The position numbers were made by a program. A stretch of DNA of 64,000 nucleotides from an uncultured Gammaproteobacteria bacterium (lineage in GTDB: Bacteria > Pseudomonadota > Gammaproteobacteria > JAURND01). This document shows positions 63,001 to 64,000 of this stretch, piece by piece. The stretch is taken from positions 22,211-86,210 of the forward strand of contig CAVZRN010000010.1 in the NCBI GenBank assembly GCA_963777715.1, read 5' to 3'. How positions within the stretch are numbered: the first letter of the stretch is position 1; each line of letters begins with the position of its first letter.

Positions 63001-64000
63001 CCGCGCTGGCAAGGTAGAGCAGGGCGGGCGAACCAATGCCCCCTGCGCCTACACAAAGAACTGAGGTATTTTTTAGCTTTTTTTGCCCCGCAAGTCCTAC
63101 TTGGGGAAGAGAAAAGTGCCTGGAGTATCTGAGTAATTCGTTTGGCGTTAGATCAAGCATAGTTACATCTATCCTCCCGAAACAGCAACCACAATTTCTA
63201 TCAAATCAGTTTCTGCCAGCGGTACATTTTCAGTGAGTCTATGACTTAATAGGTGACGATTCAGATAGATATTGACGAAACCATTTAGTTCGCCATGTTG
63301 ACCAAATAAAACCTGATATAAGCCAGGGTGGTGTTCTTTCAAGTCAAGTATCAGCGTTTGAACCGAAGATGAAGCAAGTTGTACTTCTGAATTTCCTTGA
63401 GTAAAACGTAACAAAGGGTCTGGTATGGCAAGTCGGGGCATTATTTTAAGCCTATTTGTTTAGTTAGGCGTTACTTAAATTAGGAACTGATAATGATGTG
63501 TGGTTTTCGTTATCAAGCCCAACTATTTTAATTAGGTTATTCATTGTGATGCTCCTGTAAGTGGATTTAACTGGAAATACAACTACTGTGCTATTATGTT
63601 AACAGAAAAAGGGTGTATAATGAATGTCTTAACCAATTTGTATAAGACCGCATGATTACACCGCTTTACATTGCCTTACTGGGTTTATTCTTTGTTGTGC
63701 TTTCCACGTATGTAATGCGCGGGCGATGGCGCTCTCGCGTCGCGATGGGGGATGCCGATAACCTTGAGATGAGGCGTCGCATACGCGTCCAGGGCAATTT
63801 CGCCGAATATACTCCCTTATTTCTTATTATGCTGGGTTGCGCTGAATATGGCGGGCTGCCTGCATACTGCGTTCACCTGTTCGGCATACTCTTTATCGTG
63901 GGTCGCTTAACGCACGCCTACAGCGTACTTAAACATGAGCAATACCAGGATGGCAAATTGCTTAATATGCCATTTTGGCGCATGTGTGGCATGACCTGCA

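Follow-up and report, generated by a model that had tools for sequence, protein, structure and literature searches.

We herein show that a 64,000-nt stretch of DNA from an uncultured Gammaproteobacteria bacterium (assembly GCA_963777715.1, contig CAVZRN010000010.1, positions 22,211 to 86,210 of the forward strand; hereafter the window, i.e., the whole stretch analysed) carries two mini open reading frames (ORFs), ORF-A and ORF-B, paralogues that belong to a family of very short peptides not described before. On the minus strand, the two ORFs bracket the genes of a ThiS-like sulfur carrier, a ThiF-rhodanese fusion, YcaO and TfuA, and the genes of a major facilitator superfamily (MFS) transporter and of an uncharacterised 455-aa protein (Unk455) converge on the terminator of this operon from the plus strand. 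Judging from sequence, the cluster is most likely of the YcaO-TfuA type among those making peptides that are produced on ribosomes and modified after translation (RiPPs), with a new family of very short precursors, a built-in sulfur relay and a conserved partner of unknown family. An earlier note on the window had proposed the mini-ORFs as candidate precursor peptides of a RiPP-like cluster, and the conservation of the family, its Shine-Dalgarno (SD) motifs and its similarity at the protein level lend support to this proposal.

Reading of the sequence confirmed the positions of both ORFs given in that note, together with their ribosome-binding motifs (GGAG-N7 for ORF-A; AGGAG with an 8-nt spacer to the ATG, i.e., GGAG-N8, for ORF-B) and the distance of 22 nt from the ORF-A stop to the ATG of the 90-aa ThiS-family gene. 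ORF-B starts 166 nt past the tfuA stop (59569), and no in-frame alternative start was found upstream of either ORF. The likeness of the two products, estimated earlier at about 10 of 25 residues, amounts to 9 identities over 22-23 aligned residues and lies well beyond chance: the BLOSUM62 local score of 42 was reached by none of 5000 composition-preserving shuffles (14.7 ± 3.1; z ~8.9), and ORF-A and ORF-B are reciprocal best matches among ORFs of 20-45 aa starting with ATG, of which the window has 304. Moreover, the family hidden Markov model (HMM) matches ORF-A at 2e-13 and ORF-B at 4e-14, and the ORF-B site is identical in an independent assembly (L092; loci and contigs compared with the window are given by L and P numbers).

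The closest relatives of the window YcaO (48-68% identity) are encoded on metagenomic contigs and in metagenome-assembled genomes (MAGs) labelled Coxiellaceae, Thiotrichales, Francisellaceae and unclassified Proteobacteria, the P0001 contig reaching 68%. A search of the six-frame translations of all fetched loci with a peptide profile HMM revealed family members (E values of ~1e-13 when the profile held all six sequences) in four further independent loci, L084/L085, L081/L082, L002/L086 and L004 (Table 1), in which YcaO is 48-66% identical to that of the window, and a database peptide, P0144, is a further variant. The peptide frame is thus conserved in homologous clusters, and the copies always occupy either of the same two sites, 2-22 nt upstream of thiS or shortly downstream of tfuA with a hairpin after it; the window is the sole locus keeping both. 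ORF-A is closest to the L084 copy, upstream of thiS, and ORF-B to the L081 copy, downstream of tfuA. Altogether, significant members were found in 5 of 5 independent loci combining ThiS, YcaO/TfuA, Unk455 and the MFS transporter. Each of the 15 pairs among the six family sequences is significant (z 4.6-12.9), and the block [LV]-I-x-[IL]-x-[DEG]-L-[DE]-x-E-x-[YH]-x-S-[LY]-[SA] is common to the six, with a tail of 7-17 residues after it that varies more. The peptides are 25-36 aa long, acidic and Cys-free. L084 and L085 diverge by 0.5%, with 0 of 84 mismatches in the mini-ORF, and are too near to each other for their comparison to be informative.

Very short frames may also arise in other ways: the two ORFs could be chance open frames or could stem from the duplication of a non-coding element, be it a promoter or terminator, as the earlier note had itself allowed, or an RNA element. 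Such an origin would suit their small size, the many small ORFs that AT-rich DNA gives, and the outcome of searching 5.8 billion predicted proteins with a profile (query alignment with its first row extended stop-to-stop): ORF-A and ORF-B themselves were not returned, and the only hits were two unnamed peptides, that of L002 and one closely resembling that of L004, MTDMEIIEIEIVDLEEEQYASYSASHITQ. However, gene callers seldom call ORFs of under 30 codons, and hence the absence of ORF-A and ORF-B from the predicted proteins means little. Besides the shuffle test and the reciprocal best match given above, a further argument against a chance or non-coding origin is that the frame is kept in four other loci with divergence biased to the third codon position. 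Over 22 ungapped aligned codons (six sequences, 15 pairs), mean pairwise identity is 0.55, 0.69 and 0.33 at codon positions 1, 2 and 3, respectively (random expectation 0.28), and position 3 is the least identical in 14 of the 15 pairs. The dN values range from 0.36 to 0.86, and in all pairs but one dS (Nei-Gojobori method, NG86) either exceeds 0.9 or is saturated and not computable; the exception, A-F, has dS 0.43 and dN 0.79. Synonymous codons vary accordingly: the invariant Ser is encoded by TCA, TCT, TCG or TCC, the invariant Leu by CTT, TTG or TTA, and a further Ser column holds both TCN and AGT. An SD-like GGAG-type motif is present 4-11 nt upstream of the start codon in every member, so that both the translation signal and the synonymous-biased substitution by which the earlier note would have recognised genuine genes are found. 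No DNA repeat in the window links the ORF-A and ORF-B sites, and no RNA family in Rfam matches them. Since the similarity is maintained at the protein level, a duplicated non-coding element is ruled out, and a chance or non-coding origin as a whole is effectively refuted; judged by their codon patterns, the mini-ORFs are conserved protein-coding genes.

Table 1. Positions and properties of the mini-ORFs, of the cluster that surrounds them and of related short ORFs in other loci. Coordinates are those of the window unless a locus is named.
Feature	Position	Strand	Details
Mini-ORF A	63544..63464	minus	ATG at 63544, TAA ending at 63464; 26 aa, MNNLIKIVGLDNENHTSLSVPNLSNA; first gene of the operon; candidate precursor
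GGAG ribosome-binding motif of ORF-A	63555..63552	minus	7 nt before the ATG; read from sequence
ThiS/MoaD-family sulfur-carrier protein, 90 aa	63441..63169	minus	PF02597 at 5e-8; C-terminus ...VSGG from translation
ThiF/MoeB/MoeZ-type adenylyltransferase and rhodanese fusion, 378 aa	62024..63160	minus	PF00899 at 4.5e-77, PF00581 at 4e-19; MoeB/MoeZ NCBIfam models match
YcaO, 376 aa	60894..62024	minus	From the ATG overlapping the thiF stop; PF02624 at 5.9e-55, positions 1-324/325
tfuA, ~443 aa	59569..60897	minus	ATG overlaps the ycaO stop; two PF07812 halves in two ORFs
Promoter-like site TTGCCA-17-TAAAAT, TG before -10	59475..59503	minus	~70 nt upstream of ORF-B; consensus match only
Mini-ORF B	59402..59325	minus	ATG at 59402, TAA ending at 59325; 25 aa, MIVIKIADLEEEAYSSLSMRDFFNS; second candidate precursor
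Hairpin and U-run, terminator-like	59251..59292	not assigned	dG -25.5 kcal/mol, z -5.8; inverted repeat I6
Unk455, uncharacterised, 455 aa	57882..59249	plus	Convergent with the operon; no family match
MFS transporter, candidate exporter	56512..57879	plus	PF07690 below gathering score; ends 3 nt before the Unk455 start, co-oriented
L084/L085 peptide	2 nt upstream of thiS		MGTDLIEIVELDSEDYSSLATPGLITQ
L081/L082 peptide	70 nt past tfuA, then hairpin		MSNFVIQLSELDGESYSSLSMPDLRN
L002/L086 peptide	16 nt upstream of thiS		MNNTNLDDIENIHIPDLDEETYFSLSEPKISTEQHL
L004 peptide	6 nt upstream of thiS		MMIDMEIIEIELIDLEEEQYASYSANHITQ
64-aa ORF opposite Unk455 homologue, Legionella plasmid	L098 8075-8269		
64-aa ORF opposite Unk455 homologue, Legionella plasmid	L099 7941-8138		
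64-aa ORF opposite Unk455 homologue, Legionella plasmid	L095 about 8090-8330		

With a probability that we put at roughly 0.6, the mini-ORFs would encode precursors that are thioamidated by YcaO/TfuA via thiocarboxylated ThiS (ThiS-COSH), the conserved segment acting as the recognition element and Unk455 adding or assisting a step. Thioamidation is favoured because the cluster has a full-length McrA-type YcaO, an adjacent tfuA, a ThiS protein ending in Gly-Gly and a ThiF-rhodanese fusion. The best NCBIfam match of the YcaO protein is TIGR03266 (YcaO-related McrA-glycine thioamidation protein; 1e-50, under cut-off), and its match to TIGR00702 is above cut-off; similarly, the best model for TfuA is that of McrA thioamidation, NF033432, with a score under the equivalog cut-off. 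The ThiS-like protein matches the SAMP1, MoaD and ThiS models under their cut-offs, and the rhodanese domain of the ThiF fusion has a CKSGIRS loop. This fusion would serve for E1-like activation of, and sulfur transfer to, the ThiS C-terminus, and with the Gly-Gly carrier, the E1-like adenylyltransferase and the rhodanese the predicted components of a ThiS/ThiF thiocarboxylate relay are complete. ThiF and ThiS homologues occur in some thioamitide clusters (PMC9576775), and, as set out in PMC13063428 (citing Liu et al., 2021), thioamide-forming YcaO proteins found outside sulfide-rich settings tend to rely on a thiocarboxylated ThiS homologue together with a TfuA hydrolase.

We infer a route in which the ThiF-rhodanese protein would adenylate, and then thiocarboxylate, the Gly-Gly C-terminus of the ThiS-like protein; at YcaO, TfuA would free a sulfide equivalent from ThiS-COSH, and YcaO would use ATP to activate the peptide backbone at one or several amides, converting them to thioamides. 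The conserved hydrophobic/acidic N-terminal half of the peptide, [LV]-I-x-[IL]-x-x-L-[DE]-x-E-x-Y, may be the leader-like recognition element, a further step may be performed or assisted by the convergent Unk455 protein, and the product would be exported by the MFS transporter. As the leading gene of the operon, ORF-A would be transcribed together with the rest of it, and ORF-B, possibly under its own promoter, would end the transcription unit at the strong terminator. Of the generic RiPP layout, a conserved N-terminal/central block and a variable C-terminal tail are seen, and no PqqD or RiPP recognition element (RRE) domain was detected by Pfam and NCBIfam. Two other chemistries were considered. 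Azoline formation at the Ser-rich motif is chemically possible, and was dropped because TfuA, ThiS and ThiF-rhodanese as neighbours, together with a YcaO of the McrA type, speak for thioamidation instead; a PqqA-like cofactor precursor was dropped for want of a radical S-adenosylmethionine (SAM) or PqqD partner in the cluster.

The operon itself reads, in minus-strand order, ORF-A, thiS-like, thiF-rhodanese, ycaO, tfuA, ORF-B, and the hairpin with its U-run, which closes it and abuts the convergent Unk455 gene (stop 59249). In Rfam, the single match, sub-threshold, falls on this hairpin. The promoter-like site upstream of ORF-B is among the two best of 14 consensus matches, the total of which is not above that of shuffles. 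The mechanical ORF of ycaO extends back to 62063, and homologues align from residue 14; that of the MFS gene begins at 56434, and in the independent contig L092 a 455-aa MFS gene is called. The synteny of the MFS and Unk455 genes is kept in related loci. TfuA consists of a TfuA domain and a ~300-aa C-terminal extension without family match, for which a single-sequence AF2 model (predicted local distance difference test, pLDDT, 33) was unusable. In Pfam and NCBIfam, no known tailoring-enzyme family was found among the other identified cluster genes, and PADLOC detected no defence system in the cluster, only generic E1 homology for ThiF.

Several observations weigh against the precursor reading. 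The peptides are unusually short and have no recognisable leader-cleavage motif; a Pfam/NCBIfam search gave no match for them even at E values up to 1-10, and hence no curated precursor-family model; and no PqqD/RRE-like recognition domain was detected by Pfam and NCBIfam in any cluster protein. The lack of an RRE domain and of a cleavage motif would be expected if the mini-ORFs encoded non-substrate small proteins or regulatory peptides, such as an upstream ORF (uORF) tuning the thiS operon, an adaptor or chaperone, or an immunity or signalling peptide, and ORF-A and its counterparts do lie directly upstream of thiS with the tight spacing of uORFs. However, ORF-B and the L081 copy are placed at the 3' end of the operon, past tfuA and before the terminator, where an attenuator cannot act; it is the amino-acid sequence that is conserved, with no regulatory codon run; codons for Cys, and for Met past the start region, by which sulfur amino acids could be sensed, are lacking; and the stretch from ORF-A to thiS has no reported terminator-like hairpin. 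Given this, we regard a regulatory or other non-substrate role as quite improbable.

A second group of unfavourable observations concerns Unk455. Within ~3-7 kb on each side, no family member was found near the YcaO-TfuA pairs of three loci without Unk455 (L001, L003 and L006). Since the YcaO-TfuA loci without Unk455 have no family member nearby, the mini-ORF family is tied more tightly to Unk455 than to YcaO/TfuA. Moreover, L088 and L089 carry Unk455 and YcaO/TfuA, yet only weakly similar or non-significant candidate ORFs: in L089 (9505-9618; MMQDDAFELIIDDIDESMIGEDYFDAASMNKIDPDSH) and L088 (7499-7582, minus strand; MQDDLLLDVIFDEDMETAPLGMDKISY), small acidic ORFs lie in equivalent places next to ycaO or the 455-aa gene, and both products start with M(M)QDD followed by a hydrophobic/acidic stretch. 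These two candidates were dropped as family members, as the L089 peptide resembles that of L002 only (z 4.1) and the comparison of L089 with L088 gave p = 0.07. No members were found in L005, L083, L093 and L094, several of these contigs being incomplete; the 5' ends of L083, L093 and L094 do not reach far enough to cover the site upstream of thiS.

The Unk455 family is large, with at least 1380 representatives at E ≤ 1e-3 in a 1.84-billion-protein library of 50%-identity representatives, and a metagenome scan with the Unk455 alignment gave two loci. Profile searches of Pfam, NCBIfam, PADLOC and PDB sequences gave no match for Unk455; its AF2 model has a pLDDT of 88, and Foldseek against PDB gave weak matches to CRP/cyclic nucleotide (cNMP)-binding beta-barrels (E 5e-3 or worse, TM-score ~0.25). 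In L090 and L091, where the homologues stand alone, a conserved 23-aa ORF that has an SD motif comes after each of them on the same strand (9443-9514 and about 9553-9621, respectively); the two peptides, MNTLISIPMLPSEDPLRAEDIEV and MNLMIDLPFMPIDDPLEAESIAV, resemble each other (z 11.4) and are unlike the main family, most of the flanking DNA being unalignable. These 23-aa ORFs are a second mini-ORF family tied to the Unk455 family. Distant homologues on conjugative Legionella plasmids face an operon composed of an MFS transporter gene, a 64-aa ORF (Table 1) and a SAM-dependent methyltransferase gene; a C-terminal ...ACE[TV]... motif is common to the 64-aa products, and an intact copy of the ORF lies in an unannotated gap of LPE509. 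On the P0132 contig, a homologue (Unk453) is accompanied by a 62-aa ORF and then an abutting ThiS-family gene, with no YcaO/TfuA nearby; hence, the adjacency of a small ORF and ThiS exists outside YcaO clusters.

We regard Unk455 as a candidate second maturation or partner protein. It is conceivable that the mini-ORF products are mainly its substrates or partners, exported by the MFS transporter, and that YcaO, TfuA, ThiS and ThiF modify another target or merely decorate the peptide, in which case the chemistry defining the class would not be thioamidation. The occurrence of the family only where Unk455 is present, the different 23-aa ORFs that the L090 and L091 homologues precede, the Legionella plasmid operons and the P0132 contig are all in line with this possibility. 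On the other hand, in four loci the mini-ORF lies 2-22 nt from thiS on the strand of the YcaO operon, in an orientation other than that of Unk455, no catalytic fold is recognisable in the Unk455 protein, and several of the contigs without Unk455 are incomplete. Hence, we consider it unlikely that Unk455, rather than YcaO/TfuA, is the main partner of the peptides. A broader proposal, which we put forward tentatively and do not favour at present, is that of a new RiPP class on mobile islands of Legionellales- and Thiotrichales-like bacteria, in which Unk455 would be the class-defining maturase and thioamidation by YcaO/TfuA with ThiS/ThiF one module of a wider platform. It is suggested because this large family recurs beside unrelated short ORFs, of 25-36 aa here, 23 aa in L090/L091 and 64 aa on the Legionella plasmids.

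The last unfavourable observations concern the copy of the cluster in this genome. Two frameshifts that compensate each other, near 60870 and 60635, disrupt the tfuA gene; in tblastn with intact homologues of 446 and 453 aa, residues 8-87 fall in a frame different from that of residues 89 to the end, which is also the frame of residues 1-7. In the homologous loci tfuA is intact (409-463 aa). The frameshifts represent either a real pseudogene or an assembly error, and the independent assembly L092, identical to the window, ends before both frameshift sites. Furthermore, ORF-A has His at the position of the Tyr that is conserved in the other five members. The GC content of the cluster (56434-63544) is 36.6%, as compared with 44.8% for the window, and the cluster is preceded by an IS4-like transposase gene, an IS607/IS605-type resolvase and TnpB pair, a response regulator gene and a CsrA paralogue. 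The AT-rich composition and the neighbouring insertion sequence (IS) elements and CsrA paralogue suggest that the cluster is a horizontally acquired island resembling mobile cargo.

Unless the frameshifts are assembly errors, the pathway may have been recently inactivated in this genome. The cluster would then be a decaying relic, in which the mini-ORFs are still intact since the inactivation is recent, and from which no product is made; such a state of this copy does not conflict with our preferred reading of the whole family, that of thioamidated precursors. The frameshifts, the AT-rich setting beside IS elements and the CsrA paralogue, and the His of ORF-A point in this direction. However, the two indels restore the original frame of tfuA, the other cluster genes are all intact, and an assembly error is possible. 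Hence, we consider decay of this copy a serious possibility, though the less probable one.

The mini-ORF cluster may be compared with several known systems. With the thioamitide-type YcaO-TfuA RiPP clusters (thioviridamide, thiostreptamide S4, thiovarsolins, and Tha-1 from Desulforegula), it has in common the adjacent YcaO and TfuA and a small encoded peptide (PMC6511847; PMC8120280), as well as an optional ThiS/ThiF relay and an exporter (PMC9576775). It differs from them in its peptides, which are 25-36 aa long, Cys-free, acidic and without a Pfam/NCBIfam model; in the conserved 455-aa protein of unknown family, with no known tailoring-enzyme family; in having a candidate precursor copy at each end of the operon; and in its hosts, which are not Actinobacteria but uncultured Coxiellaceae and unclassified Proteobacteria MAGs, along with unbinned metagenome contigs. 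Precursors of 20-40 aa encoded by the first gene of an operon are also known from PqqA, with its Glu-x3-Tyr motif, and from mycofactocin MftA; the E-x-Y of the mini-ORFs is a resemblance only, as the Glu/Tyr spacing differs and no radical-SAM or PqqD/RRE partner is present here.

In archaeal McrA-glycine thioamidation, the models of which (TIGR03266 and NF033432) are the best matches of the window YcaO and TfuA, both under equivalog cut-offs, the proposed chemistry is the same, with ThiS-COSH as donor (PMC5589413; PMC13063428). The substrate of the McrA system, however, is a large enzyme subunit encoded elsewhere, whereas here it would be a cluster-encoded mini-peptide, and TfuA here has the extra ~300-aa C-terminal region. 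A related cassette, the ycaO-tfuA cargo cluster of Legionella pneumophila plasmids and integrative and conjugative elements (pLPP, pLPL), resides on conjugative elements. In pLPP of L. pneumophila Paris (L096, 3114-11902), genes for a proton-dependent oligopeptide transporter (POT), an Unk455 homologue (22.6% identity to window Unk455), an ATP-grasp protein, MoaD/ThiS, MoeB/ThiF, YcaO and TfuA are followed by CsrA and TraT genes, beside conjugation genes. Unlike the window cluster, the pLPP cluster has an ATP-grasp gene; no mini-ORF family member was found in it. No close YcaO homologue was found on plasmids, the plasmid YcaO proteins being <35% identical to that of the window. In Fig. 2 of the L. 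pneumophila genome paper, ycaO and tfu are drawn as proteins of unknown function (PMC3218107). In the literature consulted, we found no precursor described for this clade. In the global TfuA mining paper (Malit et al., PMC8120280), Legionella and Fluoribacter TfuA proteins are included in the supplement, and Legionellaceae are absent from the main-text discussion; the mini-ORF peptide strings do not occur in the searched part of this supplement.

More than 1000 proteobacterial YcaO-TfuA clusters have been predicted, without assigned substrates (PMC8120280). The mini-ORFs thus offer a concrete candidate substrate family in a compact cassette of precursor, sulfur relay, YcaO/TfuA and exporter, which is distributed over Coxiellaceae and unclassified proteobacterial MAGs and unbinned contigs, with distant cousins on conjugative plasmids of Legionella. 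To our knowledge, YcaO-TfuA thioamidated peptides have so far been chemically characterised almost solely from Actinobacteria. Unk455 belongs to a large unnamed family that recurs next to transporters and short ORFs and may represent a new enzyme of peptide maturation. In addition, ORFs of under 30 codons, skipped by standard gene callers, can be key genes of such clusters.

Two other features of the window lie apart from the mini-ORF cluster. On the plus strand, at 42732-50953, type I polyketide synthase genes (ketosynthase-acyltransferase-acyl carrier protein, KS-AT-ACP, and ketoreductase-dehydratase, KR-DH) are followed by genes of the GGACT and animal-haem-peroxidase families, which together form a separate candidate natural-product locus. 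On the minus strand, near 29.6 kb and 54.8 kb, near-identical 37-aa ORFs, MYLTENHTSNTVC[CY]WETNDLLRES[GC]RHA[AT]LLYNPIVA, point to a repeated element, one copy of which lies inside the TnpB gene region.

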